64,000 nt of DNA from Bacteroidales bacterium (GTDB lineage: Bacteria; Bacteroidota; Bacteroidia; Bacteroidales; ML635J-15), in assembly GCA_963676165.1 (NCBI GenBank), contig OY781043.1, forward strand, positions 294,364 to 358,363. Reading direction: 5' to 3'. A model generated the notes under the pieces. That model searched no databases. It saw only the letters and a list, made by a program, of their open reading frames with translations, and had not been told where the DNA came from. The position numbers and the translations under genes are program-made. Position 1 is the stretch's first letter; each line of letters begins with the position of its first letter. This document shows, piece by piece, positions 1 to 54,977 of this stretch.

Positions 1-1
1 G

Positions 2-55
2 AAACTTTACCCATTAGCTTTTGACAAATTAAAAGATTATATGAATGATTATTAA
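2..55 (+). CDS. 3' end of an unidentified ORF entering from the left edge (...KLYPLAFDKLKDYMNDY*)
   Basis: Frame 2 is open to the window edge, with TAA at 53-55. It is followed by an attC-like repeat, like the other cassette ORFs. Confidence 0.3.
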   Translation, partial: KLYPLAFDKLKDYMNDY

Positions 56-70
56 TGAATAAAGCCCGAA

Positions 71-203
71 CACACAACAATGGCTCATAGGCAATAGCGG
101 GTAAATGCTCATTTCGTAGCTTTGTAACCCGCCCGAGCATTTTCTCAATTTGAAAAGGAAGACGCACGCAAACCGCTACTGCCCATAGCCGAGACCGTTG
201 AAA
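71..203 (+). repeat. attC-like imperfect inverted repeat, site A
   Basis: The left arm CACACAACAATGGCTCATAGGCAATAGCGG (71-100) is imperfectly complementary to the right arm CCGCTACTGCCCATAGCCGAGACCGTTGAAA (173-203). GTTGAAA lies 26 nt before the ATG at 223. Confidence 0.5.
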
Positions 204-222
204 CCAAGAAAAATTCTATAAT

Positions 223-1323
223 ATGAAACAACTAATTGGGATCCTAATTATTCTCAGCTTTATAAGTTGTAAACAACAGACAGAGTGTTCTTATACAATA
301 CCTGTTGATAAAAATGACGGATTGAAAGTTTCTATGCTGGAAGAACACAATCTGGACAGAAAAACTTTTGAAAAAGTCAATAAAGATATTTGTAATGGAG
401 TTTACGGTAATTTGCATAGTGTTCTGGTTATCCACGAAAATGAACTTGTAATCGAACAATATTATAATGGCTGGGATGCGAATCAGATTCATTTTTTAGC
501 ATCCACAACCAAAAGTTTCAGTGCGATAATGATAGGTATAGCAATAGAACAAGGGAAGATTAAAGATGAAAATGAAAAAATGCTTAATTTCTTTCCAGAC
601 TATTATTCTCAATCACATGACACACTTAAAGAAAAAATAACAATTAAGCATCTATTGACTAATACATCTGGATTTGAATGGGACGAAGTTTCATTACCTG
701 TAGATGACCCTGATAATATGGGTTATGAAATGGATGAAGTTGACGATTTGTTTAAAGCTTCAATTGAGTTGCCTATGGATACTATGCCAGGACTTAAATA
801 TTCTTATAGTGGACCGAACAATATCATCATAGGAGAAATAATTAAAGCATCAACAGGGCAAAATGTGGCTGAATTTACTGAAGTAAATCTTTTTAAGCCA
901 CTTGGAATAAGTGATTATCAATGGTATTCAAAAAATGGAATTTATGATGTAGGAGGTGGACTAAAACTAAAATCAAGAGACATTGCGAAATACGGATTGC
1001 TACATTTGAATAAAGGGAAATGGAATGACAAACAAATTGTTTCGTCAGAATGGATGGACAAAATCTTTGAACCATACATTGAAATAAAACATCCTTTATA
1101 TAGTTGCTGCCAATGGCAAATGGTGAAAACGGAATACGGATTTAATTCTTGGTTTATTCCCGGTAATGGTGGACAAATTATAAATGTGGTACCTGACTTA
1201 GATTTGGTAATTGTAATAAATGCGGACAATAGAAAGATTCCAAAAGAAAAGCGAAAACCTTTGGAGTTTTTAATTAAAGATTTGACTAAAATACATCCGA
1301 AAATTAGAAACAACAATACCTGA
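223..1323 (+). CDS. Serine hydrolase, beta-lactamase/transpeptidase-like family, probable lipoprotein
   Basis: 366-aa ORF with a signal peptide plus Cys (ILSFISC). It has the SxxK motif STTKSF and a YSGPNN region typical of class C beta-lactamase-like hydrolases. Confidence 0.75.
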   Translation: MKQLIGILIILSFISCKQQTECSYTIPVDKNDGLKVSMLEEHNLDRKTFEKVNKDICNGVYGNLHSVLVIHENELVIEQYYNGWDANQIHFLASTTKSFSAIMIGIAIEQGKIKDENEKMLNFFPDYYSQSHDTLKEKITIKHLLTNTSGFEWDEVSLPVDDPDNMGYEMDEVDDLFKASIELPMDTMPGLKYSYSGPNNIIIGEIIKASTGQNVAEFTEVNLFKPLGISDYQWYSKNGIYDVGGGLKLKSRDIAKYGLLHLNKGKWNDKQIVSSEWMDKIFEPYIEIKHPLYSCCQWQMVKTEYGFNSWFIPGNGGQIINVVPDLDLVIVINADNRKIPKEKRKPLEFLIKDLTKIHPKIRNNNT

Positions 1324-1373
1324 CACGCGGTATACTTAATTGATGGGTGCCGTGCGTATTCGAGCCGTTAGCG
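1310..1373 (+). repeat. attC-like imperfect inverted repeat, site B (short form)
   Basis: ACAACAATACCTGACACGCGGTATAC overlaps the TGA at 1321-1323. The right arm is GCCGTGCGTATT-CGAGCC-GTTAGCG. AATAC/GTATT and CACGCGG/CCGTGCG pair, leaving CGAGCC unpaired. Confidence 0.55.
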
Positions 1374-1411
1374 GCAAGTTTGGAAGGCAATTGTAATAAA
1401 AAATAAGAATA

Positions 1412-2656
1412 ATGGGGAAAGTTATCATATTTATATTGTCAATTTTGAGCTTTTTGAATTTATCAGCTCAAAATAAAATAATAGGTTTTAAACCGGAGAT
1501 TGAACCATATATCAATTTCATCAAAGAACAACAAATTAGTCCAATAACTTACTTACTAGAAAAGTATAAAACCTATGATGTGATTGTATTTGGAGAGCGA
1601 GATCATAGAGATATAACGCAATATTATTTTTTGGAAAAACTGATAAATTCAGAAGATTTTTACAAACAGGTAAACATTATTTATACCGAGGTTGGATCTT
1701 CCAATTACAATGACACCCTTAATAAGATACTTCAGAATGATTTCTTAAGTGAAGCTGAAGTTGATCAAAAGCTTATAGAAATATATAGAGAAATCTCATA
1801 TCAAGCATTCTGGGATAAAAACAATTTTCTATATCTATGGAAAACAATTTATAAATTCAATCTATCACATCCAAATTATCCTATTACAATTAAAATGACT
1901 TCTCATCCATTTAATTGGCACGAGATATTAGATACGACCATTTGCAGAGTCAAAACACAAGAAGTTGAAGTCAATTATGATAAATCAATGGCTGAATACT
2001 TCCTGGAAAGTTTTGATGAAAACCAAAACAATAAAAGGAATAAAGCCTTTGTTATCATGAATTATCCTCATAGTTTACGAAAATGGACTTCAGATAAAGA
2101 AGTAACTTATTCCGATATGTTTGGTGCTTATGTCGAAAAAGTACTTGAAGGAAGAGTGTGTTACGTGATAGTAAATCCGTATCGAATTAATAGTTTACAG
2201 CCAGTTGCAAATGGAAAGTGGGATGCTGCATTCAAATATTGTGATTACAAAAATATTGGCTTTGATTTCAACAGTTCACCTTTTGGTAAAGATACGTTTG
2301 ATGTTTGGTCCGCTAATGGAATCCTGAGTTTTGAGAATCTCTATGATGGAATTATTTATGTTAGCCCAACATCACAATGTAAAAATATTATAGGAATTCC
2401 TGGCTTTATAGACAGGAAATTTGGAAAAGAATATTTGAGACGCATAAAATTACGTATGTATATTTATACAGGAAAAGAATATAAGACTAAGATTAAATGG
2501 GAAAGAGAGTCTTGCAATACGGTTAGAGTCAGAACGGTACAAGATGATAATGAATTTATGTATGGCGAAGATAAATCTAAATATTTTGATTCTATTGTAA
2601 ATAAGTGGTTAATATTTGAACAAAAACCAGCTAATAATAATGGCAATGGCCAATAG
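1412..2656 (+). CDS. Hypothetical secreted protein
   Basis: 414-aa ORF with an N-terminal signal peptide (FLNLSAQ). The motif VFGERDHRD is faintly reminiscent of the ChaN/erythromycin-esterase/Tiki superfamily. No firm family assignment. Confidence 0.55.
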   Translation: MGKVIIFILSILSFLNLSAQNKIIGFKPEIEPYINFIKEQQISPITYLLEKYKTYDVIVFGERDHRDITQYYFLEKLINSEDFYKQVNIIYTEVGSSNYNDTLNKILQNDFLSEAEVDQKLIEIYREISYQAFWDKNNFLYLWKTIYKFNLSHPNYPITIKMTSHPFNWHEILDTTICRVKTQEVEVNYDKSMAEYFLESFDENQNNKRNKAFVIMNYPHSLRKWTSDKEVTYSDMFGAYVEKVLEGRVCYVIVNPYRINSLQPVANGKWDAAFKYCDYKNIGFDFNSSPFGKDTFDVWSANGILSFENLYDGIIYVSPTSQCKNIIGIPGFIDRKFGKEYLRRIKLRMYIYTGKEYKTKIKWERESCNTVRVRTVQDDNEFMYGEDKSKYFDSIVNKWLIFEQKPANNNGNGQ

Positions 2657-2695
2657 AGTGTTAGAAGGAAAGATAAGCTTGGCTCCTTGTTGAAA
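2633..2695 (+). repeat. Weak attC-like repeat, site C
   Basis: AATAATAATGGCAATGGCCAATAG overlaps the stop at 2654-2656. The right side is AAGCTTGGCTCCTTGTTGAAA, with the same GTTGAAA core as site A. Arm complementarity is poor. Confidence 0.3.
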
Positions 2696-2750
2696 GGTCG
2701 CCAAATTTTAAAATCTTAATTTGGAGTGTAAAACTCCTAAAAGAGCCATT

Positions 2751-2800
2751 TGCAAATTAGCAAAGAAGATTTGATGAATGATCTGATTGAAAGTGAATAA
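2751..2800 (+). repeat. 50-bp exact copy of the 3' end of the TPR gene (matches 5929-5978)
   Basis: TGCAAATTAGCAAAGAAGATTTGATGAATGATCTGATTGAAAGTGAATAA occurs at both places. GTATCAAA follows both copies, after an extra 14 bp at the right copy. Confidence 0.9.
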
Positions 2801-3014
2801 GTATCAAATGTTAGAGTTTTGAGTGAATGTCTCAGGAAATATTATTGCTAATTCAAAGCGAAGACAGCAATCCAATATTGTTGCGCGGTTACAATATGAA
2901 GTTTGGTTCTTTCGAGCTAAATCTGAGCAATTACCTGGGCTTGACTTATGAATTCTAAGCCAAATTGTCTGCTTGTCGTGTGAGGATGATAGTTTTATGG
3001 TATAATGCTTCATT

Positions 3015-3160
3015 TTATCGAAATAAATTTGTACTTTTCGAAAAGAAACAAGCAAACTCGTTTATAAATGCTTACAAACAATTACAAATGCTTATTTCCG
3101 GATGGTAATCGATGGCTATTAAGTAGTTGTGAGAAGGGTGTGGTTATAAACGAGTTGTAA
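3015..3160 (+). repeat. Conserved ~150-bp non-coding element, copy A (hairpin CTCGTTTATAA...TTATAAACGAG ending GTTGTAA)
   Basis: It aligns by eye with 51813-51965. Shared parts are the leader TTATCGAAA..TTTCGA.AAGAAACAAGCA, 11-12 bp terminal inverted repeats, two internal AAATGCTTA(C) direct repeats, and a right end resembling the attC-like GTT core. Confidence 0.6.
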
Positions 3161-3204
3161 AACATTTGTCAGCCCATCTGCTAGTTATTGATAATTGAAA
3201 TATT

Positions 3205-3849
3205 ATGAGACTAAAACTTAATGGAAAAAAATATAGATATCGTCAGGAGTATTATAAGATTGAAGATGAACTGAAAGTAAAATTACCTTCTTATTCCATA
3301 AGTTATTCTGGCAAGGGTTTTTATAACGGTAAATGGCATCCATGTATTTTTCATTTCATAGATTCTTCAGGAAAAATGAAAATATTTATTTCTCCAGGAG
3401 GGGTATTTAAAGAAGGGATGTCTGACCTTGGCAAAGTGGATTCTCAGGGATTTGTAGATAAAATTGAGATTAAAGGTTTTAGGCGATTCCTTATTTTATT
3501 CTATGATTTTCTATTTCAAAAGAAACTTCAAATTTTAGGCATTATTGATAGAGCCAGCTTGATTAGGAAAAACTTAAGGTATATTTCCATTGCATTAATT
3601 GGTTCAATAATTTACTACCTGATTAATCACTTTTTGGATGGGTTCTTACAAGACTTGATAAATAAAAGTAACCTTGTTCAGTCTATAATAGTATTTCTCA
3701 GCTTATCAAGTATAGTTAATATATTCCACCCTTTTACTTTCCGTAAAGAGTTAAAGATTGAAGAAGTCGATGAACTGATTACAAAAAAGATACAGAAAGC
3801 TGAAAAAGAAGCAAAACGTAAGGAGGCAAATAAAAAATATTATCGATAA
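3205..3849 (+). CDS. Hypothetical membrane protein
   Basis: 214-aa ORF with hydrophobic segments (ISIALIGSIIYYLINHF, IIVFLSLSSIV) and a Lys-rich tail. Its stop lies 2 nt before the next ATG. Confidence 0.5.
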   Translation: MRLKLNGKKYRYRQEYYKIEDELKVKLPSYSISYSGKGFYNGKWHPCIFHFIDSSGKMKIFISPGGVFKEGMSDLGKVDSQGFVDKIEIKGFRRFLILFYDFLFQKKLQILGIIDRASLIRKNLRYISIALIGSIIYYLINHFLDGFLQDLINKSNLVQSIIVFLSLSSIVNIFHPFTFRKELKIEEVDELITKKIQKAEKEAKRKEANKKYYR

Positions 3850-3851
3850 TA

Positions 3852-4367
3852 ATGGAGAATGCGATAAAAAATAGAATACCGATTCATGTGGACTTAGAGC
3901 CAAATCGCGATGAAGTTTTTACAGGGATTTGTATAAAGGAAAATCATGAAGTCTTCATTTTTATTTGCTTCAATGAGGAGACAAAGGAATATGATGGATA
4001 CGCCATTTTGAGAAGTCAAGAAATAGAGCAGTATCGATATTGGGATAATGAGGAGCTAAGTGAGATTAAGACTGATAACCACATAGATTTCCTAAATAGA
4101 TTACCGCTGGATAAAATGAATTCATTCCATGAATGTTTAGTTGCATTAAGAGAAAAGGAATTGATTGCCATCTTTACATCAGACGATAATGATTCTTATT
4201 ATGTAGGAAGGATTAATAACCTATCTAATAGTAAGGTAACATTAAAGTTGCTGAGTGAATCTTCAGAGTGGCTGGATGAAAAGAAAATTGATATTGACAA
4301 TATTACGTACATTGGTTTTGATACCAGCTATGAGAAAGAGTTGATTAAAAACGTTTTACAACAATAA
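3852..4367 (+). CDS. Hypothetical cytoplasmic protein (probably co-transcribed with 3205-3849)
   Basis: 171-aa ORF, tightly coupled to the upstream ORF. Its stop codon overlaps the attC-like left core ACAACAATAA. Confidence 0.5.
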   Translation: MENAIKNRIPIHVDLEPNRDEVFTGICIKENHEVFIFICFNEETKEYDGYAILRSQEIEQYRYWDNEELSEIKTDNHIDFLNRLPLDKMNSFHECLVALREKELIAIFTSDDNDSYYVGRINNLSNSKVTLKLLSESSEWLDEKKIDIDNITYIGFDTSYEKELIKNVLQQ

Positions 4368-4486
4368 ATATACGTAATGCGGGGCGATTTTCTAAATTTG
4401 AACTTTAAAGCATTTAATAAACAACTTAGCGGTTTGATAGTGAAGTGCCTTGAAATCCCGCACTACGCATATTCGAGCCGTTATGG
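4358..4486 (+). repeat. attC-like imperfect inverted repeat, site D
   Basis: The left arm ACAAC-AATAAATATACGTAATGCGGGG pairs with the right arm CCCGCACTACGCATATT-CGAGCC-GTTATGG. It has the central motif CGGTTTGATAG. GTT lies 18 nt before the ATG at 4498. Confidence 0.6.
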
Positions 4487-4497
4487 GCATTTGAAAA

Positions 4498-4950
4498 ATG
4501 AGATATTTAATACTTACAATAAGTCTAATATTGAATTTGGGTTTGTTTGCTCAGATAAATGATTCTACCCATTCTTTTGAACTTGACTCAAATGGGATTA
4601 GAATTTATCATTCTGCGGATAAAATGCCTGAAATGTCAATATCTCAAGCTGAATTTATGAGCATATTAAGTTCAAAATTGAATTGGCCAGAGGTTGACAC
4701 AAACTGTTGGTTTGACAAAGTTTGTTTTGGAATAATAGTTTATGCAGATGGAAGTATTAAAACAAATTCATTGAGAATAGTTGGATCAATATGCAATGAT
4801 GATGAAAGAATAGATAAATTGAAAAAGCAATTAAGAACGAATTTAGATGAGATATTTAGTGATTTACCTAAATGGGTGTCAGGAGAAATAAATAATAAGA
4901 AAGTAGCAGTTATGTTAACAATACCTATTCATGTAAATCTTGAGTTATAA
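4498..4950 (+). CDS. Secreted protein with a TonB-C-terminal-like domain
   Basis: 150-aa ORF with a signal peptide (LGLFAQ). The C-terminal KWVSGEINNKKVAVMLTIPIHV resembles the TonB_C motif (W.PG..nGk.V.v...lPi.F). Confidence 0.5.
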   Translation: MRYLILTISLILNLGLFAQINDSTHSFELDSNGIRIYHSADKMPEMSISQAEFMSILSSKLNWPEVDTNCWFDKVCFGIIVYADGSIKTNSLRIVGSICNDDERIDKLKKQLRTNLDEIFSDLPKWVSGEINNKKVAVMLTIPIHVNLEL

Positions 4951-5093
4951 AGAAAAACGCAATTGTTTCAATCACAACAGTCCTCATGATGCTTTATCTA
5001 ATGAAAAATGTCTACTATAACACTGTTTTAAAAAGGAGAAGCCTACATACAAACACAAAAAAAACAACGCGAAAAGTACAAAACATGAACGGT

Positions 5094-5172
5094 ATAACAA
5101 TTAATAAAAGGCTTAGGCTTGATAGATTCTTGCTTCAAAATGCGCAACGTTTTGTACAGCCATCCGTTGGCA
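5094..5172 (+). repeat. Degenerate attC-like repeat, site E
   Basis: ATAACAAT...GGCTTGATAG...CCATCCGTTGGCA keeps the left core, central motif and right core of the family. The arms pair poorly. Confidence 0.3.
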
Positions 5173-5342
5173 TTCATTTTGGAAAAAACATCAAAAGAAG
5201 TATTCATAAAATACTGGACAGACTTTTTAACCAAGCTCTGATGATGTCACACTGATTTATGAGAAAACAAATTGGGTAATGTTTTACCGACATTTTGAAG
5301 TCGCTAATATTTGGAAAAGAACTTAAAGATTAAGCACGCCTT

Positions 5343-5978
5343 ATGAACAGCACAACTTTAATAAGAGGAAAGAGAATGGGAAAAGTAATTTTTCGAAGTT
5401 TGTTGATGATATCTGTTTTGTTGAACAGTATTCAATGTACTAGGAGCCAACAAAACAGAAGTAAAGCAGTTGAATTGAATAACCAGGCTGTGGAATTTCA
5501 ACACCTAGGTCAAGAAGATAAAGCCATGGAATATTATGATAAGGCAATTAAAGCGGATGAAACATACTACATGCCTCATGCAAACAAGGTCGAAATCTAT
5601 TTGTCTCGTAATGAATATGAAAAAGCACTAAGCGAAAGTGAAATAGTGATCAAGAAAAAAACAGATTTGGCAGAGGGTTGGTTCTTTGCAGGTTTATTGC
5701 ACGACTACCTCGGAAATTCAAAAAAAGCACAATCTTATTATCTTCATAGTGTTAAAATCTATGATCAAAGAATAAGCAATACAGATGAGGAGGATAAGAT
5801 TGTAGCAAATAAGTTGAATCGAGCTATTGCCCTGATTTTTATCCTTGGTCGAGAGGGTGAAGGGAAAGCTGAGCTTGAGAAATTGAAAGAATCGGAGAGT
5901 ATTAGTAATGATTTTATTGATTATTTTATGCAAATTAGCAAAGAAGATTTGATGAATGATCTGATTGAAAGTGAATAA
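5343..5978 (+). CDS. TPR-repeat lipoprotein (alternative start 5376)
   Basis: 211-aa ORF. MGKVIFRSLLMISVLLNSIQC is a lipoprotein signal. TPR-like repeats are visible (AMEYYDKAIKADETYYMPHANK, AQSYYLHSVKIYD). Confidence 0.65.
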   Translation: MNSTTLIRGKRMGKVIFRSLLMISVLLNSIQCTRSQQNRSKAVELNNQAVEFQHLGQEDKAMEYYDKAIKADETYYMPHANKVEIYLSRNEYEKALSESEIVIKKKTDLAEGWFFAGLLHDYLGNSKKAQSYYLHSVKIYDQRISNTDEEDKIVANKLNRAIALIFILGREGEGKAELEKLKESESISNDFIDYFMQISKEDLMNDLIESE

Positions 5979-5991
5979 ATATTAAATATTA

Positions 5992-6287
5992 TTGTATCAA
6001 ACTGAAGACGGACAAACAAAAATTGATGTTCGATTAGAAGACGAAACCGTTTGGCTTACAATTAACCAAATGAGTGAATTGTTTCAGAAATCTCGTTCAA
6101 CCATAAATGAGCATATTATTAATATTTTTAATGAAGGTGAGCTCGAAAAAGAACAATCAATGAGAAAAATCGGAATTTCCGATTTTTCTACAAAGCCAAC
6201 CAATATTTATAATCTTGATGTGATTATTTCAGTTGGATATAGGGTTAAAAGCCATCAAGGAACAAAGTTTCGGCAGTGGGCAACTTC
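5992..6287 (+). pseudogene. rhuM-family gene, N-terminal fragment (interrupted)
   Basis: YQTEDGQTKIDVRLEDETVWLTINQMSELFQ...VGYRVKSHQGTKFRQWATS matches the RhuM N-terminus. The frame breaks at the insertion at 6288. Confidence 0.75.
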
Positions 6288-6469
6288 GGATCAAGCAAAA
6301 AAGTTGGGGGACATTGAATGTTTATTATGACCTATATTCTCAAATATTTGGATGGGCTATTTTTTTTGACAGTTCAGCTTATCATTACCAAAATCTGCGC
6401 TAGTCTAGTACTAGCCGCTTTTCGTAAAACTATAGATAGGTATCTGGTAATAATCTAGATACGAGTTTT

Positions 6470-8179
6470 GGCGCCAGACTGTCTAATAACCTTAATAAGT
6501 TTGTTAATAAAGATTTTGCATGAATTCATGTTAAAGGAAAGGATATTAGTACCTTACAATATGAAATTTATAAAAGGAGAAAGTAGGTATTTAAAAAGTC
6601 TATTCCCAGTATCTTTAGAAGAAAGCATTGGTGAGGATAATGAAATTCGCATTATTGACGCATTTGTTGATAATTTAAACTTTTCTGAATTGGGATTTAG
6701 AACACATTACAGAGAAACAGGTCGTCCGGCCTATCACCCCAAAGATTTACTAAAGCTATATATTTATGGATATATGAATAGCATTAGATCATCACGTCGG
6801 TTAGAAAAAGAATGCAAACGAAATATTGAATTGATGTGGCTTTTAAATAATTTGTCACCAGATCATAATACTATATCGAATTTCAGAAAGGACAATTCCA
6901 AATCAATAAAGAAAGTTTTCAGAGAGACGGTTAAGTTATCTCAGTATTTTGAACTTATTGGAGGCGAATTGGTTGCAGGAGACAGCACAAAGCTTAGAGC
7001 CCAGAATAGCAAAAAGAATAATTTCAATCAGAAAAAGATAGAGCGACATCAAGAATATATCGAAAGAAAAATAGAAGAATACGAACAAGAATTAAGTAAT
7101 AACGATGGTGATAATCAGGAAATATTAAAAAAGATTGAGAACAAAAAAGAACTTAAATCAAAGTACGACCGCATGTCTGAGGAATTAACTAGAGATAAAG
7201 AAACACAAATATCAACTAGTGATCCAGATAGTCGAAATATGACTCTTCGAAATAATATATCGGAAGTCGCTTACTGTGTTCAAAGTATGGTTGACGCTAA
7301 GCACAACCTGCTGCTGGACTTTATTGTGACGAACAAAGGTGATAAAAACGCAATGGGAAATATGTTGCAACGTACTAAGTCTATTTTACGTAATACTACT
7401 TTTACTGCTTTATTTGATACTGGATACCATTCAGGGAGAGAGCTAAAAAAAGCAGATGATTTAGGCATCAATGTTCTGGTAAATGTACCTTCTACACCAC
7501 ATGCAAACCAAATTCCTGACCCAAATTATTGTATAAGCAATTTTGTATATGACAAAGAAAATGACACATATACATGCCCAGAAGGTGAAATTTTAATAAC
7601 TAATGGGAATTGGTGTAACGCAAGAAATAAGAATGGAGAAGTTTATTACAGATTTAAAAACTATGGTACCGTTAAATGCAAAGAATGTCCCGTTAGGTCT
7701 AAGTGTACAATAAATAAAAAAGGTCGTAGAATAAAAAGAAGTGAATATGCCGAGAACATACAGTCTAACACGAAACGAATGATTGATTTAAAAGATAAAT
7801 ACCGGCAGCGGAAAAGCATAGTAGAACATCCATTTGGAACAATGAAACGACAATGGGGATACGACCACATAATAACGAAAAAATACATTAAACGAGCAAC
7901 AGCAGATGTTGGGTTGATTTTTTCATGCTATAATATCAAGCGATTAATAAATATTCTGGGAATTGATGCACTAATCGAATCTTTCAATAAGGGAAAGAGG
8001 TTTTGTGCTCAAATATTAACCAGATATGGAATCAAATTAAGACTTTTAAGACCTCTAAATTATTTACACAAACAAGGCTGCACAAAATCAATCCCTAATT
8101 ATTACTACTTATTTAGCAACTATAGGCTTATGAGGGCATGAATTTTTAGAAAATCTTAATTATCAGACAGTCTGGCGCC
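6470..8179 (+). mobile_element. IS1182-family insertion sequence
   Basis: The terminal inverted repeats GGCGCCAGACTGTCTAATAA (6470-) and TTATCAGACAGTCTGGCGCC (-8179) have one mismatch. They enclose a single DDE transposase ORF in 1710 bp. Confidence 0.8.
6561..8141 (+). CDS. IS1182-family (IS5/IS4-like DDE) transposase
   Basis: MKFIKGESRY...RIIDAFVD...TGRPAYHPKDLLKLYIYGY...SSRRLEKEC is the typical IS1182 N-terminus, and HPFGTMKRQWGY the typical C-terminal motif. The upstream TTG-started extension is probably not translated. Confidence 0.8.
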   Translation: MKFIKGESRYLKSLFPVSLEESIGEDNEIRIIDAFVDNLNFSELGFRTHYRETGRPAYHPKDLLKLYIYGYMNSIRSSRRLEKECKRNIELMWLLNNLSPDHNTISNFRKDNSKSIKKVFRETVKLSQYFELIGGELVAGDSTKLRAQNSKKNNFNQKKIERHQEYIERKIEEYEQELSNNDGDNQEILKKIENKKELKSKYDRMSEELTRDKETQISTSDPDSRNMTLRNNISEVAYCVQSMVDAKHNLLLDFIVTNKGDKNAMGNMLQRTKSILRNTTFTALFDTGYHSGRELKKADDLGINVLVNVPSTPHANQIPDPNYCISNFVYDKENDTYTCPEGEILITNGNWCNARNKNGEVYYRFKNYGTVKCKECPVRSKCTINKKGRRIKRSEYAENIQSNTKRMIDLKDKYRQRKSIVEHPFGTMKRQWGYDHIITKKYIKRATADVGLIFSCYNIKRLINILGIDALIESFNKGKRFCAQILTRYGIKLRLLRPLNYLHKQGCTKSIPNYYYLFSNYRLMRA

Positions 8180-8426
8180 TTCGCGTATTTTCTGTGATTT
8201 ATTGAGATGTGTTTGGAGTTTTTGAGCCGCGCATGCGAGCCTGTTTGCCATACTTGGCCGCTAAACAAAACGAGCTTTCTGCGGGTCACGGAAAACATAT
8301 CCAATAAATAAGAAAATTCGGGTCAGCGCCTGATTTTCTTTGCTAGCTTTCTTTCATCAGGAAAGAAAGCGAAGTTGAAAAATGTTAGGTATTAGTGGTT
8401 TGCCCCACAGGAATATTGCTTGATCC

Positions 8427-8840
8427 GCAACTTCTCGGTTAAAAGAATACATCGTTAAAGGATTTACCATGAACGATGATTTACTCAAACAGGCTGGTGG
8501 AGGTAATTACTTTGACGAATTACTAGCTCGTATCAGGGATATTCATTCATCAGAAAAAGTGTTTTGGAGAAAAGTTCTTGACATATATGCTACAAGTATT
8601 GATTATGACCCATCATTGGAGATGTCTGTAATGTTCTTCAAAACAGCTCAAAATAAAATGCACTGGGCAGCGCATGGGCACACAGCAGCTGAGATAATTT
8701 ATAATCGAGTGGACTCAGGGAAACCAAATATAGGACTGAGTAGCTTTAAAGGAAAGAATCCAACTAAACAGGAAACAGAGATTGTTAAAAAAAAGCGCCA
8801 ATTCCCCTTTCTGAAAATCAACGCTTTTTTGCTAATGTAA
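8427..8840 (+). pseudogene. rhuM-family gene, central fragment (3'-truncated)
   Basis: (S)RLKEYIVKGFTMNDDLLKQAGGGNYFDELLARIRDIHSSEKVFWRKVLDIYATSIDYD is RhuM-like. Similarity ends near 8795 (EIVKK), where a hairpin AAAAGCG...CGCTTTT follows. Confidence 0.7.
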
Positions 8841-8929
8841 AAGTATTCATAAATTGTGAAATACCAAAGAACAGGTCTGTCGCATTTTAAAAAATCGTAA
8901 CTTTATACCCTCAAAAAAATGCCCGACTT

Positions 8930-11314
8930 ATGACCAATATGGATGATTATCAGTTTAAAGGAAAACGCGTTTTAATTCGTGTCGATTTCAATGTCCCTTT
9001 GAATGAAAATGGTGAAATAACCGACGATACACGAATTGTAACAGCCGTGCCTACAATTCAAAAAGTGCTTACTGAAGGCGGTTCTGTCATCATCATGACA
9101 CATCTTGGCCGTCCGAAAGGACAATTTAATGAGGCTTTAAGTGTAAAACGCATCTCTGATTATGTGTCCGGAATGCTAGGTCGTGAAATTATTGTTGCGG
9201 AAGATTGCATAGGCAAGGAAACGGAAAAACTGGCAGCATCACTCAAAAAAGGACAGGTGCTCATGTTGGAAAATCTTCGTTTTTATAACGAGGAAACTGC
9301 CGGCGATGAGGAATTTGCGAAAAAATTGGCCAAACTTGGTGATGCTTATATCAATAATGCCTTTGGAACTGCCCATCGTGCGCACGCATCCACCTACACC
9401 ATCGCGAAATTTTTCCCTTACGACAAAATGTTGGGATATTTGGTGGAGTCTGAAGTGAAAAACATTGATAAACTCCTGAAAAAAGCCAAATCACCCTTTA
9501 CTGCAATCATTGGAGGAGCAAAAATTTCCACAAAAATTGACATCATCGAAGCCTTGATGGAGAAAGTGGATAATTTAATCATTGGTGGGGGTATTGTCTT
9601 TACCTTTCTGAAAGCCAAAGGACTAGAAGTTGGAAATTCTTTGGTTGATGATGATTATATTGAGGTGGCAAAACGTATTCTTGACACAGCTCGTGAACGA
9701 AATGTCAAAGTGTATCTCTCAGAAGATGTGTTGATTGCAGATAATTTTAGCAATGAAGCCCAGATAGAGCATGTTCCTGTTTCTGCCATCAAACCCGGTT
9801 GGATGGGAATGGATATTGGTGTAAAATCTGCTGAATTGTTTGAGCAGGTCATTGAAAATTCTGAAAGCATTTTGTGGAATGGTCCTATGGGCGTCTTTGA
9901 AATGCCTCACTTTGCTTATGGTACGCTGAAAACAGGTTTGTCTGTGGCACGTGCTACCGATAAAGGTTCTTACTCTTTGGTTGGTGGAGGTGATTCCATT
10001 GCTGCCTTAAAAAAGTATGCATTGGAACATAAAATTTCTTATGTCTCAACTGCAGGTGGAGCCTTACTGGAGTATATTGAAGGGAAAAAATTGCCAAGTT
10101 TACGCGCAATTAGGGAAACTCACAGCATGGATGATTACGATTTCCGTGGAAAACGTGCTCTTGTTCGTGTGGATTTCAATGTCCCTATGGATGAGAATTT
10201 CAAGATTACCGATGATACACGTATCCGTACTGCGATTCCAACGCTTCGGAAAATTCTTGCAGAAGGAGGATCTATCATTCTTTTAACTCACATTGGCCGT
10301 CCGAAAGGTCAGCGAATGGATAAATATTCTGTTCGACATATTATTCCTTATGTTTCGGATTTGCTTGGTACCGAAGTGCAATTTGCAGATCGTTGTCGTG
10401 GCGATAATACTGAGAAAATTGCAAAACAGCTTAAGCCTGGCGAAGTGCTGATGCTTGAGAACCTCCGCTTTACCAATGAAGAAATTGAGGGAAGTGAAAG
10501 TTTTGCTGAAGAATTAAGTCGTCTTGGGGATGTGTACATCAATAATGCCTTTGGTACAGCGCATCGTGCACATGCTTCAACATATACCATTGCAAAATTC
10601 TTCCCTGAAGATAAAATGCTTGGATATCTGATTGAAAATGAAATTAACAACATCAATCGCATATTGTACAAAGCTGAGCGTCCGTTTACCACTGTCATTG
10701 GGGGATCAAAAATCTCAACTAAAATCAATATCATTCGTGCTTTGATGGATAAAGCCGATAATGTGATTATTGGTGGCGGGATTGCCTTTACCTTTATCAA
10801 AGCCATGGGTGGAAATATTGGAGATTCTCTCGTTGAGGAGGATTCATTGGATGTGGCACGTGAAATACTTGATTATGCTGCACGTAGCTCAGTGAAATTG
10901 TATCTTCCAACAGATTGTTTGATTGCCGATGCATTTGAGAAAAACCCAAAAATTCGTCATGCCAAAGCAAACAATATTCCTGACGGATGGAGGGGTTTAG
11001 ATATCGGTGTGAAAACAGCGGAAACCTATACGAAAGTGATAGAAAACTCCAACGCTATTCTTTGGAATGGTCCGATGGGAGTATTTGAAATGCCGTATTT
11101 TAGTAACGGAACAATCAAAATATCTCTGGCAACAGCGCGTGCAACCGATATGGGAGCGTTTTCACTTGTTGGTGGTGGAGATTCTATTGCAGCACTAAAA
11201 CGCTATGGTATGAGTCATAAAATTTCGTATATTTCAACTGCGGGAGGTGCTTTGCTTGAGTACATTGAAGGAAAAGAATTACCAAGTTTAAAAGCAATAC
11301 GCACAAAGATATAA
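8930..11314 (+). CDS. pgk: Tandem-fused phosphoglycerate kinase (two complete PGK modules: residues 1-399 and 400-794)
   Basis: Both halves carry VRVDFNVP, TH(L/I)GRPKG, ENLRF, NNAFGTAHRAHAS, GG(A/S)KISTKI, WNGPMGVFE, GGGDS and STAGGA. There is no stop between IRETHS and the MDDYDF at 10127. Confidence 0.85.
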   Translation: MTNMDDYQFKGKRVLIRVDFNVPLNENGEITDDTRIVTAVPTIQKVLTEGGSVIIMTHLGRPKGQFNEALSVKRISDYVSGMLGREIIVAEDCIGKETEKLAASLKKGQVLMLENLRFYNEETAGDEEFAKKLAKLGDAYINNAFGTAHRAHASTYTIAKFFPYDKMLGYLVESEVKNIDKLLKKAKSPFTAIIGGAKISTKIDIIEALMEKVDNLIIGGGIVFTFLKAKGLEVGNSLVDDDYIEVAKRILDTARERNVKVYLSEDVLIADNFSNEAQIEHVPVSAIKPGWMGMDIGVKSAELFEQVIENSESILWNGPMGVFEMPHFAYGTLKTGLSVARATDKGSYSLVGGGDSIAALKKYALEHKISYVSTAGGALLEYIEGKKLPSLRAIRETHSMDDYDFRGKRALVRVDFNVPMDENFKITDDTRIRTAIPTLRKILAEGGSIILLTHIGRPKGQRMDKYSVRHIIPYVSDLLGTEVQFADRCRGDNTEKIAKQLKPGEVLMLENLRFTNEEIEGSESFAEELSRLGDVYINNAFGTAHRAHASTYTIAKFFPEDKMLGYLIENEINNINRILYKAERPFTTVIGGSKISTKINIIRALMDKADNVIIGGGIAFTFIKAMGGNIGDSLVEEDSLDVAREILDYAARSSVKLYLPTDCLIADAFEKNPKIRHAKANNIPDGWRGLDIGVKTAETYTKVIENSNAILWNGPMGVFEMPYFSNGTIKISLATARATDMGAFSLVGGGDSIAALKRYGMSHKISYISTAGGALLEYIEGKELPSLKAIRTKI

Positions 11315-11334
11315 TGCAAATAAACTAAGCTATT

Positions 11335-12633
11335 ATGGAAATTAATTTGCCGAAAATTCAAGATGCTGACCTGAATGGAAAAGTTGTCCTTGTTCGTGTC
11401 GATCACAATGTGGTGAAAAAGGGTGTGATTCACGATCCTTACCGTATTGACGCAACGATTGGAACCCTGTATCATATCAATGCAAAGGGCGGGAAAATCA
11501 TTTTAATGACACACGTGGGAAGACCGCGTGACAAAAAGGACAATAGCATTCATATTAGTGATGATACTTCGGTAAAACCCATTGTCGATTACTTAAACAA
11601 CAAATTGCATATCAATATTCAGATACCGGAATTTGTACCGCATGGCGATCAAGGATATTTGGGCTTGGAGACTTCCATTAACCACATGATTCGTGAACTT
11701 CGAAATGGCGATATCGATGGAATTTACTTACCAAATACACGTTGGTTTGCCGGTGAAGAAGCAGATGGCGATGTGTCAGATCGTTTTGGATTGCAGCTAG
11801 CTGGTTTAGCAGATGTGTTTGTCAACGATGCATTTGGATCATGGCAACCTCACACTTCAACGGTGAAAGTCAACGATTATTTGCCTTCTTATGCAGGATA
11901 TCTCATGCAAAAGGAAATTGCTAATTTAGAGCGTATTTATAAAGCTGAGCATCCTTTTGTGGCAGTGGTTGCAGGGAGTAAAATGGACACGAAAATTGAG
12001 TCCCTTTATGCGCTTTTAAAAATTGCTGATAAATTGGTTTTGGGCGGTGTCATTTACAATGCCTATTTGTGCGCAAAATATGGAATTCGAATCAAAGGAG
12101 TTGATGAGGGGAACTTGGCACTTGCAAAAGAGTTTGTGAAATATGCTGAGGATTATTCTGATAAGATTTTGGAGCTGGAATACATCATTGAATCTGATAT
12201 TTTGGAAGGCAAAGAAAATGGAAAATACAGAATGCATCACATTCAGGACTTAAAAGAGGATCAGGAATTGAACTATGTGTTGGATGTTGCTCCAGAGTCC
12301 TTTCATCAAGAAAATGTTTGTCAGGTATTTAAAAATGCTAAGACAATTTTTATCAATGCAGTTATGGGTTTTACTCCGCATTTTAATGATGGAACCATTG
12401 CATTGGATGAGCTAACAGATTCAAATTTGGATGCTGTGAAGTTATACGGTGGTGGAGATACCATGCAAGAGTTAAAACGTTTACTCCCAGGTTTGTATAT
12501 TGTCGCTTTGGACAATCCAAAATACTACATTTTCACCGGTGGTGGTGCAGTGCTAAAAGCCATACAAGAAGGAACCTATGCAGGCTTAGAGCCCGTAAAG
12601 GCTTTGGTTGAAAACCAGAAAAAGAATCTGTAA
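11335..12633 (+). CDS. Divergent phosphoglycerate-kinase-like paralogue
   Basis: It keeps VRVDHNV, THVGRP, NTRW, VNDAFGS, AGSKMDTKI, GGGDT and TGGGA. It has SWQPHTS in place of AHRAHAS and INAVMGFTP in place of WNGPMGVFE. It starts 20 nt after the fused pgk. Confidence 0.7.
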   Translation: MEINLPKIQDADLNGKVVLVRVDHNVVKKGVIHDPYRIDATIGTLYHINAKGGKIILMTHVGRPRDKKDNSIHISDDTSVKPIVDYLNNKLHINIQIPEFVPHGDQGYLGLETSINHMIRELRNGDIDGIYLPNTRWFAGEEADGDVSDRFGLQLAGLADVFVNDAFGSWQPHTSTVKVNDYLPSYAGYLMQKEIANLERIYKAEHPFVAVVAGSKMDTKIESLYALLKIADKLVLGGVIYNAYLCAKYGIRIKGVDEGNLALAKEFVKYAEDYSDKILELEYIIESDILEGKENGKYRMHHIQDLKEDQELNYVLDVAPESFHQENVCQVFKNAKTIFINAVMGFTPHFNDGTIALDELTDSNLDAVKLYGGGDTMQELKRLLPGLYIVALDNPKYYIFTGGGAVLKAIQEGTYAGLEPVKALVENQKKNL

Positions 12634-51614: not shown

Positions 51615-51812
51615 GATTTTTTATTTCAAAAGTACCGGTGGGAGGCATTTTATGCTAGTGTTTTTCGGTGAAAGCTGTGGAAATCTCGGTAAAACAGCGA
51701 AATAGCACTGCAATACTCAAAAGCAAAAAATTGACTCTTGAAAACCTGTTTTCTGACAGCTTATCAAACAATAATCATAAAGGTTTGACAAGTTTTCCAT
51801 GTTTTTTGTGAT

Positions 51813-51965
51813 TTATCGAAAATATCTCTACCTTTCGAGAAGAAACAAGCACAAGCACGCTCGTTTATAAATGATTACATTTATTTATAAATACTTACCA
51901 TGCAGTTGATATTGATTGATTGTTAGGTGTTTGTGAAAGGAGTTGTGGATATAAACGAGTTATGC
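51813..51965 (+). repeat. Conserved ~150-bp non-coding element, copy B (hairpin CTCGTTTATAA...ATATAAACGAG ending GTTATGC)
   Basis: It is homologous by eye to 3015-3160. Its right end GTTATGC is identical to the right core of attC-like site F. It sits at the left border of array 2. Confidence 0.6.
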
Positions 51966-52064
51966 ACAAGTAAAGAGAATTACTGCAAAAAGGTATGAAT
52001 TGTTAAAATTGAATTGATTTCGGCTGTAATGAAAAAAAGCGTAAATTTGTAAAAAGAGATAATC

Positions 52065-52286
52065 ATGGATATCCAAACAAAGAAATATCATTTGATAGAG
52101 TGGATTACGCAAATAAGGGATTCGCAGCTTCTCGACAAGTTGATGCGGCTTGCTACAGAAAATGATTGGTGGGAAGAAATAAGTCAGTCAGAGCGAGATG
52201 CCATAGAAGAAGGTTTGCGAGATTTGTCAAAAGGGAATTTACATGATCATTCAGAAGTGAAGAAGCTTTATGAAAGATATCACTAG
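52065..52286 (+). CDS. Putative antitoxin (addiction-module component)
   Basis: 73-aa acidic ORF that overlaps the following RelE/ParE toxin ORF by 17 nt. Confidence 0.6.
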   Translation: MDIQTKKYHLIEWITQIRDSQLLDKLMRLATENDWWEEISQSERDAIEEGLRDLSKGNLHDHSEVKKLYERYH

Positions 52287-52569
52287 GGTTGTATGGTCAG
52301 ATCGGGCTGTCTCTGATTTGAAAAATATCATTAATTACCTTGAAGACAATTGGACGCAAAAAGAGATAAATAAATTTACGCTAAAACTTGAAAAACAAAT
52401 TTCAATAATAAAGGAGCATCCGAAAGCTTTTGTTGCTACTAATCACAATAATGTTAGAAGAGCAGTAATGACAAAACAAGTAACACTTTATTATGATTTA
52501 GAAGAATCGACAATTAGAATCGTAACATTATTTGATACACGTCAAAGTCCGACCGAATTGCAATTCTAA
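52270..52569 (+). CDS. Type II toxin, RelE/ParE family
   Basis: 99-aa ORF. W..RA..DL..I..Y and the C-terminal IRIVTLFDTRQSP are typical of ParE/RelE-like toxins. Confidence 0.7.
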   Translation: MKDITRVVWSDRAVSDLKNIINYLEDNWTQKEINKFTLKLEKQISIIKEHPKAFVATNHNNVRRAVMTKQVTLYYDLEESTIRIVTLFDTRQSPTELQF

Positions 52570-52612
52570 AACATTTTGCAGATAATAAAAAACTTTTAGA
52601 AAGAATACCAGT

Positions 52613-52694
52613 GCATAACAATAAATATATATCAGCTGCGCGAGTTTGATACGCAATAGTGGCGCAGCCGCTACATATTTGCATACCGTTATGC
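52613..52694 (+). repeat. attC-like imperfect inverted repeat, site F
   Basis: GCATAAC (52613-52619) and GTTATGC (52688-52694) are perfect complements. The inner pairs are AAATAT/ATATTT and CTGCGC/GCGCAG. GCATACC is unpaired next to the right core. The central motif is GAGTTTGATAC. Confidence 0.65.
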
Positions 52695-52773
52695 CCTATG
52701 TAGGCTTGACAGACGAAAAAACAGAACTCAAACTATTTACAATTTAAACTTTAGTTTAAATCGGATTATTAAA

Positions 52774-53146
52774 ATGATTCATGAAATTGATATAAAGCCT
52801 ATTCATAAGAGGTTATTATTTAGCTTAGGTCATTTGGATATATTTTTCAATAGTTATTATTGCTTTAATAGCTTATGAGAAAGGACTTTTTGAAGCCATG
52901 ATTTTTTGCATTATTTGGCTAACACTACTCTTTGTGAAAATATTTTATGATTCTCGGTATTTTGTATCAAGAATATCATTTGATGAAAATATAACGGAGC
53001 ATCTACTAATGGAAGCGAAGGAAAATAGAACAAAAATTTGTGTTCTTCATGCTTCGAAAATGGGGGACCCAATTTATACAAAGCTTGGTTTTCAAAAATA
53101 TGGAGAAATTGAAACCTATAGAATATTGAAAGAAAAGAATAACTAA
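52774..53146 (+). pseudogene. Disrupted cassette ORF ending in a GNAT acetyltransferase C-terminal remnant
   Basis: A 33-codon ORF from 52774 stops, and reading resumes at 52898 in another frame. Only the last ~45 aa (ITEHLLMEAKENRTKICVLHASKMGDPIYTKLGFQKYGE) look GNAT-like. The N-terminal GNAT motifs are absent. Confidence 0.5.
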
Positions 53147-53262
53147 AGCTGACACTGTATATACAAGGTAGGCGGAATGGTAGTAAATTCAACGGTTGTA
53201 GCCCGCTTAAAATTATCTCGGTTTGATACATTTGAAGCCCGCAATCGCCTACATTTGCATAC
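53139..53262 (+). repeat. attC-like repeat, site G (left and central part; the right core is displaced to 54348-54360 by the intron)
   Basis: ATAAC overlaps the TAA stop. The sequence aligns along its length with site H (ACACTGTATAT..GTAGTAAATTCAA..TCGGTTTGATA..CGCAATCGC..CATTTG). It is broken after GCATAC. Confidence 0.65.
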
Positions 53263-54347
53263 GTGTGCCAAGAAGCAGTACATCGGCATTAAACAGTACT
53301 GCATGCTTTAATTGAGATGGTGGAATCCGTCAGTTGACGGATGATCCCCCCGAAGTCGATTTCCAGGAAAGGGCTTCAACCCACCTAAAGATGCTGTGTT
53401 GAAGAAGCATGGTATTGAGCGTTTAGGAAAATACAGTCCATGAGACTGTCAGGAATGTGTACAGGAGATGAACGAAAGAGAACCATTGATGAAGAGTCGA
53501 GAAAGTGGAATCCTCAGTCAAAATCCGTATAAGTATGAATGCGGTTATAAGTGCAACGGTTACCTGTTTATTGGTTGCACGATTGGCGTCATTTAGATGG
53601 CATGAACTGTACACAGGCTCAGTTAAGGAACTTGGGAATCTGATCGGGAATGTAAAGGGAAGCACAATAAAATCAATCTAGAGGCGAAATACCAAAAACC
53701 CGAATCAGAGACGGACTAACCCGTAGTAGTGATGAATTCCTGTAATGGGAATAGAGCAAAGGGGTTAGGTTATACAGAGTCATAACATTTAACAACTTGT
53801 AAGAGGATGAATTTATGGAATGAGACAAAATCAGTACCGATAAGTCGCCAAATGATTTGGCAGGCTTATAAGAAAGAGAAAGCCAACAAAGGAAGTGCAG
53901 GTGTCGATTCAGTAAGCATGGAGATATTCGATGCAAACAGAAGTAAACACTTGTATAAACTTTGGAATCGAATGATATCGGGGAGTTATTTCCCTCCACT
54001 AGTCAAAGAAGTTGAGATTCTTAAAAAAGACGGCAAAGTCCACAAGTTAGGTATTCTAACAATAGCAAATTTCGTGGATACGAACTGTCAAGAGTATTTT
54101 ATCTGCTACGATGTCGACTGGTACGCTGGGCACGAAAACGGTATAAACGCTACAGAATAAGTTTGACAAGAGTCTGTAAATTGTTATACAGGGTTAGGAA
54201 GCAATATCCTTATCTGTTTTATCACTGGCAATTAGGATTTTCAAATTAAAAGTAGCAGATTTGTATAACAAGAGCCGTATGACGGGAGACTATCACGTAC
54301 GGTTCTGTGAGAGGCTTAGGGTGAAACTCCCTTTACCTATTCGACAC
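53263..54347 (+). mobile_element. Group II intron, ORF-deleted derivative (bacterial class C-like)
   Basis: The 5' end is GTGTG. The RT N-terminus (53807-54070) reads SAGVDSVSMEIF...YFPPLVKEVEILKKDGKVHKLGI. The IEP C-terminal remnant is RWARKRYKRYR...YPYLFYHWQLGFSN* (about 54125-54250). Domain V is GAGCCGTATGACGGGAGACTATCACGTACGGTTC (54272-54305). A domain VI-like stem follows. The proposed 3' end ...CGACAC is inferred by alignment of the flanks to site H. Confidence 0.75.
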
Positions 54348-54395
54348 TTGTCCGTTGTAGTTAATGCAAAAGAGAGTTTCGTTCAAAATGAAACT

Positions 54396-54977
54396 ATGAA
54401 AAGATTAGTAGAAAATATTGAGACTTATATTAGCTTAAATCAGGAAGAATTGTCTTTGCTTGAAAAATTTTTGACAAAAAAAACTTATAATAAAAAGACT
54501 ACCTTTTTTGAAGAAGGAAAAATTGCTAATGAAATATATTTTGTTTCTAAAGGTTGTGTTCGCCTGTTTTATAATGTAGACGGTAACGATAAAACTGCCT
54601 TCTTTTATACAGAAGGACAATTTATATGTGCAGGAGAAAGCTATACTTTCAATACACCGGCCATAGAAAACTATCAAGCAATTGAAAATACTGACTTGAT
54701 AATATTCACAAAGTCAGACATTGAAAAGTTAACGCTACTGTTACCAAGAATAGAGGTAATTGCACGAGTTGCTGTGGAGAATGAATTAATAACTAGTCAA
54801 AAAGTGATTGCTTCATTTGTGACAAAATCGCCGGAAGAACGTTACCTTGACTTGTTAAATACTCAAAAAGAACTTTTCCAAAGAGTTCCACAACAGTATA
54901 TTGCATCGTTTCTTGGAGTTTCGCCGGAAACACTAAGTAGAATCAAAACAAGAGTTTACAAAAAAGAACGTTCTTGA
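54396..54977 (+). CDS. Crp/Fnr-family transcriptional regulator
   Basis: It has a cNMP-binding fold (FFEEGKIANEIYFVSKGCVRLFY) and a C-terminal HTH (QQYIASFLGVSPETLSRIK). The listed ORF start at 54261 lies inside the intron. Confidence 0.8.
   Translation: MKRLVENIETYISLNQEELSLLEKFLTKKTYNKKTTFFEEGKIANEIYFVSKGCVRLFYNVDGNDKTAFFYTEGQFICAGESYTFNTPAIENYQAIENTDLIIFTKSDIEKLTLLLPRIEVIARVAVENELITSQKVIASFVTKSPEERYLDLLNTQKELFQRVPQQYIASFLGVSPETLSRIKTRVYKKERS

Follow-up and report, generated by a model that had tools for sequence, protein, structure and literature searches.

We analyzed a 64,000-nucleotide stretch of DNA from a Bacteroidales bacterium (lineage ML635J-15; assembly GCA_963676165.1, contig OY781043.1, positions 294,364 to 358,363 of the forward strand), called the window below. 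Taken as a whole, positions 1-5991 of the window are very probably an array of integron-type gene cassettes, this being the best explanation of what we found there. The array belongs to a widespread, barely characterized Bacteroidales version of the integron, with a recombinase that does not carry the hallmark domain of integron integrases. It behaves like an integron, yet it fails two defining tests, the additional domain of the integrase IntI and the extrahelical bases of the attC sites. A preliminary description, made from the sequence alone, had already read the region as integron cassettes, and the strand-specific, structured family of sites with AAC...GTT cores described below bears that reading out. 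It had also raised the possibility of a distinct recombination system, which gains substance from related loci that link the sites to a 280-aa XerA/IntI-like protein without the IntI-specific domain.

The first cassette array

The array comprises six open reading frames (ORFs), all co-directional on the plus strand, and the recombination sites that separate them. The features are as follows, each with the evidence on which it was called.

2-55, plus strand: 3' end of the ORF of a preceding cassette, ending in ...KDYMNDY and a stop (sequence; direct repeat family D3)
72-203, plus strand: attC-type site A, intact, with R'' ACACAAC at 72-78 and R' GTTGAAA at 197-203 (covariance model R1, bottom-strand fold)
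198-1367, plus strand: cassette 1, beta-lactamase-fold serine hydrolase, ORF 223-1323 (Pfam PF00144; DNA homology)
1308-1373, plus strand: site B, a short degenerate attC, with R'' ACCTGAC at 1318-1324 and R' GTTAGCG at 1367-1373 (homology)
1412-2656, plus strand: ORF of cassette 2, 414 aa, secreted, without a known family (ORF call, Pfam/NCBIfam)
2627-2695, plus strand: site C, a degenerate remnant, with right end GTTGAAA at 2689-2695 (sequence only)
2751-2813, plus strand: 63-nt duplicate, 95% identical to 5929-5991, which comprises the TPR gene's final 50 nt and 13 nt more (repeat search)
3012-3156, plus strand: element F, with a perfect 13-bp inverted repeat AACTCGTTTATAA / TTATAAACGAGTT (ends at G|TT 3154|3155)
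3155-4480, plus strand: two-gene cassette, ORF 3205-3849 (membrane protein) and ORF 3852-4367 (boundary complementarity)
4356-4486, plus strand: attC-type site D, intact, with R'' TTACAAC at 4356-4362 and R' GTTATGG at 4480-4486 (covariance model)
4498-4950, plus strand: cassette ORF, 150 aa, signal peptide, without a known family (ORF call, Pfam/NCBIfam)
5045-5172, plus strand: attC-type site E, decayed, with R' GTTGGCA intact at 5166-5172 and R'' eroded (36.9 bits, E 2e-8)
5343-5978, plus strand: ORF of the last cassette, TPR lipoprotein, with no attC after it (Pfam)

The six same-strand ORFs agree with the preliminary description. Among the functions proposed there, the serine hydrolase (PF00144) and the TPR protein stood, while the protein described as TonB-C-like had no match in Pfam or NCBIfam. 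The same two databases gave zero matches for ORFs 1412-2656, 3205-3849, 3852-4367 and 4498-4950, and none of the six array products matched an immunity family in either of them. The G+C content of the array is 32.1%, compared with 37.7% for the core genes. The ORF tail at 2-55 resembles the C-terminus of the TPR protein 5343-5978. A sigma-70 promoter scan was uninformative, the host being a member of the Bacteroidota.

At its right border the array meets a 5'-truncated gene of the RhuM family, which starts at 5992 without its first codons (region 5992-8840) and is interrupted by an insertion sequence (IS) with a DDE transposase (6468-8141); core genes lie beyond. The duplicated 63 nt span the end of the TPR gene across the RhuM junction, and the copy at 2751-2813 is the mark of a past rearrangement or duplication within the array.

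The sites as one structured family

Eleven clear sites (mean identity 62%) were aligned, folded with RNAalifold on the bottom strand and used to build a covariance model. The fold contains 23 pairs, 16 of them with compensatory change, and its bottom-strand elements are an R box (AACG paired with TGTT), about 6 nt unpaired on the R' side and an 18-bp stem. When 78 distinct sites from about 40 genomes and metagenome contigs are fitted to this structure, 94.8% of the cells are paired, compared with 34-56% in controls with slid partners. Both-sided change is then found in 21 of the 23 pairs, and three of the bottom-strand pairs are conserved G.U. In 55 of 72 sites the bottom strand forms the more stable fold (p = 8e-7). 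Site length is 130-134 nt in 66 of 80 sites, and the family can be described as about 131 nt long. The spacer is asymmetric, with 4-6 nt on the R' side and 2 nt opposite, in agreement with the unpaired stretch next to the right core that had been noticed earlier. The consensus of the ends is (T/C)AAC / GTT(R), with AAC present in 87 and GTT in 83 of 96 sites. More than 70 independent sites in other loci fit the same covariance model, dozens of them always on one strand. A and D are confirmed as related imperfect inverted repeats, which the preliminary description had taken them to be.

Within the window the model has five matches in 64 kb, namely A, D, E and the two sites at 53147-53273 and 57605-57735. 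All of them fall within two accessory arrays, and the repeats are accordingly not generic ones, a possibility raised when they were first described. Sites A and D are long imperfect hairpins on folding and rank among the top-scoring members of the whole family. Site A, with its crossover G|TT at 197|198, scores 104.7 bits on the minus strand and 6 bits on the plus strand; for site D the scores are 113.5 and 11.5 bits. The minus strand of both folds better because the A.C mismatches of the coding strand become G.T pairs there. The right half of D is nearly identical to one site of L010, a related locus described below. Folding gave the strand-specific structure and the R box that the preliminary description had proposed to look for, and it did not give conserved extrahelical bases.

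The weaker sites differ in how they hold up. Site E is a real, decayed member of the family, and its true span is 5045-5172 instead of the 5094-5172 first given. Site B is not significant in the covariance model (7.6 bits, E 1.4), but it is homologous to intact sites behind the same gene in loci L015 and L010. The hydrolase stop codon sits within its R'' core, which reads ACCTGAC in the window and was ancestrally ACCTAAC; this mutation of the core accounts for the weak appearance of B. Site C, in contrast, gave no significant match to the covariance model, and its sole point in favor is a left end, CAGCTAAT, that partly complements or matches the GTTAGCGG of B.

Element F was missing from the original list of sites. 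Its right end GTTGTAAAAC (3154-3163) is the exact complement, at 10 of 10 positions, of the left end GTTTTACAAC of D (4353-4362), which makes F the upstream boundary of the cassette 3155-4480. A homolog of F lies at 51800-51961, at the head of a second array, and the homology of the two copies stops exactly at GAG|TT. The second copy is without the R'' AAC, and two TCGAAA-type repeats lie to the left of F. With no recombinase next to it, F may be a candidate primary, attI-like site, which we offer as a hypothesis only. The distance from GTT to the following ATG is 23 nt at A, 42 nt at B, 15 nt at D and 48 nt at F.

Two simpler ways of finding sites were set aside. Searches with exact motifs (TTCGAGCCGTTA and similar ones) were dropped as too specific, since TTCGAGCCGTTA recovered B and D alone in the window. 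An energy-only scan for AAC...GTT hairpins was noisy, with many matches inside genes, and was kept merely for the choice of seeds.

Cassette boundaries and mobility

In an integron the sequence 3' of G|TT is part of the next cassette, whose own R'' it pairs with. This signature is present here. In 43 pairs of adjacent sites, R' of one site and R'' of the next are complementary at 5.35 of 7 positions on average, and at 6 or more in 28 of the pairs; the controls give 2.68 of 7 for R' and R'' of the same site and 2.65 of 7 for random pairs. Low scores come from adjacent pairs that are separated by undetected sites, A to D in the window being one example. Within the first array the start of the cassette 3155-4480, (G)TTGTAAAAC, complements R'' GTTTTACAAC of its own attC, which is site D. 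Complementarity from B to C and from D to E is only partial, which fits the decay of these sites.

The hydrolase gene allows the boundaries to be compared between genomes. Its homologs number more than 250 and come almost entirely from Marinilabiliales or Bacteroidales; 50 of these loci were taken with 10-kb flanks. DNA homology to three of them (L001, L002 and L003) is limited to window positions 194/198 to 1298/1310, while the flanking genes are unrelated; it begins at the GTT of A and finishes near the stop codon. Cassette limits are found exactly at G|TT, which is what the preliminary description had proposed to look for in related genomes. The recurrence of the hydrolase cassette in unrelated contexts is, as judged from DNA homology, apparent mobility. 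None of the remaining cassettes of the window is present in loci L001-L066. In many loci the hydrolase gene is preceded by GTTAGGT-GTTATTG and followed by AACAAC-ACCTAAC, and these GTTAGGT and ACCTAAC flanks are textbook GTTRRRY and RYYYAAC cores.

The hydrolase gene is also seen in two states, either as a cassette with attC-type ends or as an ordinary chromosomal gene without such ends, as in Marinifilum and Carboxylicivirga. The loci contrasted for the two states were L017-L021, L009, L020 and L027 against L010, L015, L023 and L032. This could show how genes turn into cassettes.

The recombinase and its attI site in related loci

The candidate enzyme comes from related loci. In L010 a 280-aa recombinase is followed by an attI site and then by five cassettes transcribed divergently from it. 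This recombinase passes the NCBIfam model NF040815 (XerA / 'integron integrase') with 240 bits against a cut-off of 220. In the alignment the IntI-specific insertion of about 45 aa is cleanly missing. Ordered by likeness, its PDB relatives are XerA (5hxy, 3e-44), then VchIntIA in two stretches, then XerD. The family has thousands of members in Bacteroidales, and a Mangrovibacterium metagenome-assembled genome, from what appears to be the order of the window's host, carries the same recombinase and attI.

Upstream of this gene, distant genomes share a conserved region as far as ...CGTAAAnnnnAC|GTT and differ beyond the GTT. It has an attI-like layout with TACGAA(A/T)GTT direct repeats, and the motif reads TTTACGAA(A/T)GTT...CGTAAAnnnnAC|GTT. 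The association of this enzyme with the sites was followed in 80 metagenome loci, which were selected by a match to the 280-aa recombinase, with no IntI screen in that set. The covariance model has 72 matches in these loci, 71 of them on the strand expected of divergent cassettes, and they are concentrated upstream of the recombinase (55 in 201 kb, compared with 17 in 402 kb downstream). A match is present in 28 of the 38 loci that have more than 1 kb of upstream sequence. In 39 of the 80 the contig breaks off upstream of the recombinase gene within 450 nt, as assemblies typically do when they fail in a variable array. Of the 16 loci where the attI junction could be located, 14 show complementarity between this junction and R'' of the first attC at 6 or more of 7 positions, and another one shows it at 5 of 7.

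The same arrangement is found in L064, a contig labelled Bacteroides heparinolyticus, with the order recombinase, attI, cassette, attC (92 bits), second cassette, attC and enolase. Its first cassette (4469-10000) contains, besides a 48-aa ORF, genes for a 656-aa trypsin-like protease with TPR repeats and for a 509-aa reverse transcriptase, and looks like a defence-type module carried as a single cassette. The first cassette of L010 (7013-9927, delimited by the complementarity of GTTGTGTGCAAGC and GCCTGCACACAAC) measures 2.9 kb and contains TrkH- and TrkA-like potassium-uptake genes, a cargo that is unusually large and housekeeping-like for a cassette. In L144 (metagenome contig OKRY01002427.1) the recombinase and cassettes recur with a period of 6846 nt, with the same ORF sizes and site scores, which may reflect a circular or tandem form, or else an artefact of assembly.

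Two other recombinases were considered and rejected. The one in L013 shares only 35% identity with the L010 enzyme and has an IS91-like transposase behind it; this recombinase/IS91-like pair (3344-5328) heads a cassette array with attC matches at 1547-1677 and 203-400. In L014 only a C-terminal fragment remains, adjoining a probable IS21 element.

Proposed mechanism and alternative explanations

Together these results show how the array is built. Each cassette consists of a recombination site of about 131 nt and, ahead of it, one or two ORFs poor in promoters. In the site, the complement of the coding strand folds into a hairpin with a 5-bp R box ((T/C)AACG with TGTT(R)), a loop of 4-6 nt on one side and 2 nt on the other, and the 18-bp stem. 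A tyrosine recombinase would cut at G|TT, and cassettes would leave as circles and re-enter at attI or at another attC. Excision and re-insertion at G|TT would explain why the sequence that follows a GTT is part of the next cassette and complementary to that cassette's own site. By association in related Bacteroidales loci, the recombinase would be the 280-aa XerA/IntI-like enzyme beside the conserved attI. The choice of strand would probably be made through the asymmetric spacer and the three G.T wobble pairs that exist on the bottom strand only. In complexes of VchIntIA with attC, the additional domain of IntI reads the extrahelical bases; as that domain reads those bases, the absence of both from the present system fits together. 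The lack of a recombinase in the 64 kb to the right, along with the partial decay of the sites, implies that the array is either the far end of a longer integron or an orphan one of the CALIN kind.

A number of observations weigh against an integron-type reading. The preliminary description had seen no integrase next to the array, and none is present anywhere in the 64-kb window, which starts inside the array and holds neither a tyrosine recombinase or its remnant nor an attI of known type. The recombinase linked to the arrays in other loci stays below the cut-off of the integron-integrase model TIGR02249 (219.5 against 265). The IntI1 query used for tblastn and for the alignment was entered by hand; the family assignment was confirmed independently of it by the NCBIfam and PDB searches. 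Extrahelical bases are not conserved, and 58-62 of 80 sites are without a bulged base in either arm. The scores of A and D themselves are circular because both sites were seeds of the model. Finally, neither B nor C is supported by the model, E is eroded and no site follows the last cassette.

This last group of observations raises the question of whether the array is now an inactive relic, in which cassettes that were once mobile have become fixed and their sites are decaying. The AAC to GAC change in the core of B, the erosion of C and E and the siteless last cassette would all be expected of a relic, as would the 63-nt internal duplication, the IS at the right border and the lack of a recombinase in 64 kb. 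Against this, A and D are among the best-scoring members of their family and the complementarity from F to D is perfect, and a recombinase encoded elsewhere in the genome could act in trans. We consider a relic unlikely, if still a serious possibility; it concerns present activity and is compatible with the same origin of the array.

An alternative for the enzyme itself is that the array is a classical integron or CALIN, and that a canonical IntI with its additional domain, encoded to the left of the window or elsewhere in the genome, acts on the sites. The cores do fit RYYYAAC / GTTRRRY (for example ACCTAAC / GTTAGGT), the length of about 131 nt falls inside the classical range of 57-141 nt, and the left flank lies outside the window. 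However, tblastn with IntI1 on about 50 loci, and with the 280-aa enzyme on those and on L054-L066, found no recombinase with the IntI insertion. The same site family is instead tied by position to the 280-aa enzyme and its attI, and the sites are without the extrahelical bases that IntI reads. A canonical IntI is therefore improbable. The weakest alternative, that these are ordinary structured intergenic repeats (REP/BIME-like elements, intrinsic terminators or antisense RNA) with no role in recombination, can draw on the position of the hairpins right after stop codons, where terminators would lie, but we regard it as very improbable, given that no T-run follows the sites, that a terminator scan matched none of them, that an Rfam search of 1-6600 found no family, that the coding-strand transcript folds worse and has A.C where the other strand has G.T, that there are merely five copies in 64 kb and these in accessory arrays only, and that the complementarity between neighboring sites would be left without explanation.

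Going beyond the array itself, it is tempting to see an order-wide Bacteroidales lineage of integrons that is distinct from the known ones, a proposal that we make tentatively and rate at slightly less than an even chance. Such a lineage would have a XerA-like integrase of 280 aa without the domain that reads extrahelical bases, and attC sites of about 131 nt that are without these bases and whose strand is chosen through the spacer and the G.T wobbles. It would provide the mechanism behind rAID-type arrays, would be a sister or precursor of classical integrons, and would be a chromosomal source of cassette genes such as the B1 metallo-beta-lactamase described below.

Comparison with known systems

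The similarity to classical integrons extends to most parts of the system. Both have co-directional, largely promoterless cassettes, RYYYAAC...GTTRRRY ends and a G|TT crossover that is completed by the next cassette. In both, the hairpin favors the bottom strand and is made up of an R box, an unpaired spacer and a long stem. Relatives of the array also have the divergent tyrosine recombinase, next to an attI with direct repeats. The homogeneous site length is shared with the VCR sites of Vibrio. In contrast, the linked recombinase has 280 aa, lacks the IntI insertion of about 45 aa and has the archaeal XerA as its closest structure in PDB. The sites have no conserved extrahelical bases and show instead the asymmetric 4-6 / 2 nt spacer and the conserved G.T wobbles. 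The conservation of this site family extends across families of an order, beyond a single species. CALIN arrays, as defined by IntegronFinder (PMC9024848), have at least two attC sites and no integron integrase nearby, and the array may be one of them; here three sites supported by the model lie in 1-5172 and no recombinase is found in the 64 kb to the right, the left flank lying outside the window.

The nearest enzymes are those of the Xer group, which includes the archaeal XerA and XerC/D. XerA 5hxy and NF040815 are the closest matches, the size is equal and the IntI insertion is absent from both. Unlike Xer recombinases, the array-linked enzyme is not at a dif site; its neighbors are a conserved attI with TACGAA(A/T)GTT repeats and cassettes that vary.

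Among published systems the closest is rAID-1, described from 226 of 423 Bacteroidales genomes, in which a XerD-family recombinase is found with low-GC gene arrays and with intergenic repeats 'reminiscent of integrons' (Ross et al. 2019, 10.1101/471110). It is defined by a 5' XerD-like recombinase that shares 44% identity or more with BF9343_RS08045, followed by at least two co-directional genes with a G+C content of at most 41%, conserved intergenic motifs and orphan immunity cargo (Ross et al. 2019, 10.1101/471110). The two systems share a Bacteroidales host, a XerD-family tyrosine recombinase next to short, co-oriented, low-GC genes, intergenic repeats and contigs that break in the array. 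The gene content of the first array, with six co-directional ORFs, 32.1% G+C and conserved sites, agrees with the part of this definition that concerns gene direction, G+C content and intergenic motifs, the G+C value being weakly discriminating in a genome of 36% G+C. There are also differences. The published array lies 3' of its recombinase and is co-directional with it, whereas here the cassettes are divergent (71 of 72 matches on that strand). The cargo here is not recognizable as immunity genes and consists of a hydrolase, a TPR lipoprotein and proteins without a known family, with a B1 metallo-beta-lactamase and a toxin-antitoxin-like pair in the second array. The host is marine and Marinilabiliales-like as opposed to gut Bacteroides. 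A homology search with the array-linked recombinase returned no B. fragilis entry. On the basis of the published description, the present system and rAID-1 are probably the same or sister systems. If the two recombinases do belong to one family, present in about half of Bacteroidales genomes, then the array-linked enzyme would not be a universal housekeeping gene.

These comparisons bear on how integrons have been looked for. Surveys report almost no integrons in Bacteroidetes because integrons are defined and searched for through the IntI-specific domain, and in Bacteroidetes proper the sole complete integron detected is that of Salinibacter ruber (PMC9024848). What we describe are arrays with the full logic of cassettes that are tied to a recombinase which IntI-based searches reject, and they range from marine Marinilabiliales to the contig labelled Bacteroides heparinolyticus. 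In the literature we searched, the site structure, the boundary complementarity and the missing IntI domain were not described, and a search for a Bacteroidetes integron integrase without the additional domain gave nothing beyond Ross et al. The biogenesis of rAID arrays was still called open in 2025 (10.1101/2025.05.03.651265), and the present system offers a concrete, testable mechanism for building rAID-like arrays in Bacteroidales. It is also a natural experiment on strand selection without extrahelical bases.

The second array and other features of the window

A second array lies toward the right end of the window.

51800-58400, plus strand: second cassette array, 33.5% G+C (F-like element, attC-type sites)

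It starts with the F-like element at 51800-51961, whose crossover G|TT is at 51959|51960. Next come a toxin-antitoxin-like gene pair (52065-52569) and a short attC (52613-52694); R'' of this site, GTGCATAAC, is complementary to GTTATGCAC, the R' of the F-like element. Further on are an ORF at 52898-53146, the attC at 53147-53273 and, later, a metallo-beta-lactamase cassette. The ORF of the latter, 56531-57610, encodes a subclass B1 metallo-beta-lactamase of the long type, with 531 bits in NCBIfam NF041269, where the cut-off is 350. The stop codon of this ORF falls within the R'' core of the attC-type site at 57605-57735 (52.4 bits), and the following ORF begins 15 nt past the R' GTT. The B1 metallo-beta-lactamase (56531-57735) is thus packaged as an integron-type cassette in the chromosome of an environmental member of the Bacteroidota, which bears on the origin of integron-borne resistance cassettes.

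The R' end of the attC at 53147-53273 is interrupted by a degenerate group II intron on the plus strand (53270-54345), recognized by Rfam matches to RF01999 (53336-53454) and RF00029 (54270-54345) and by a truncated reverse transcriptase ORF (53807-54160). The same intron junction (GTGCCAAGAAGC.G.ACATCGGCAT) is found behind an attC in L023 (11104-11237), which suggests an intron lineage that targets these attC-type sites.

Between the arrays, positions 8930-12633 hold three phosphoglycerate kinase units in tandem, two of them fused in the 794-aa product of ORF 8930-11314 and the third, which is divergent, encoded by ORF 11335-12633.

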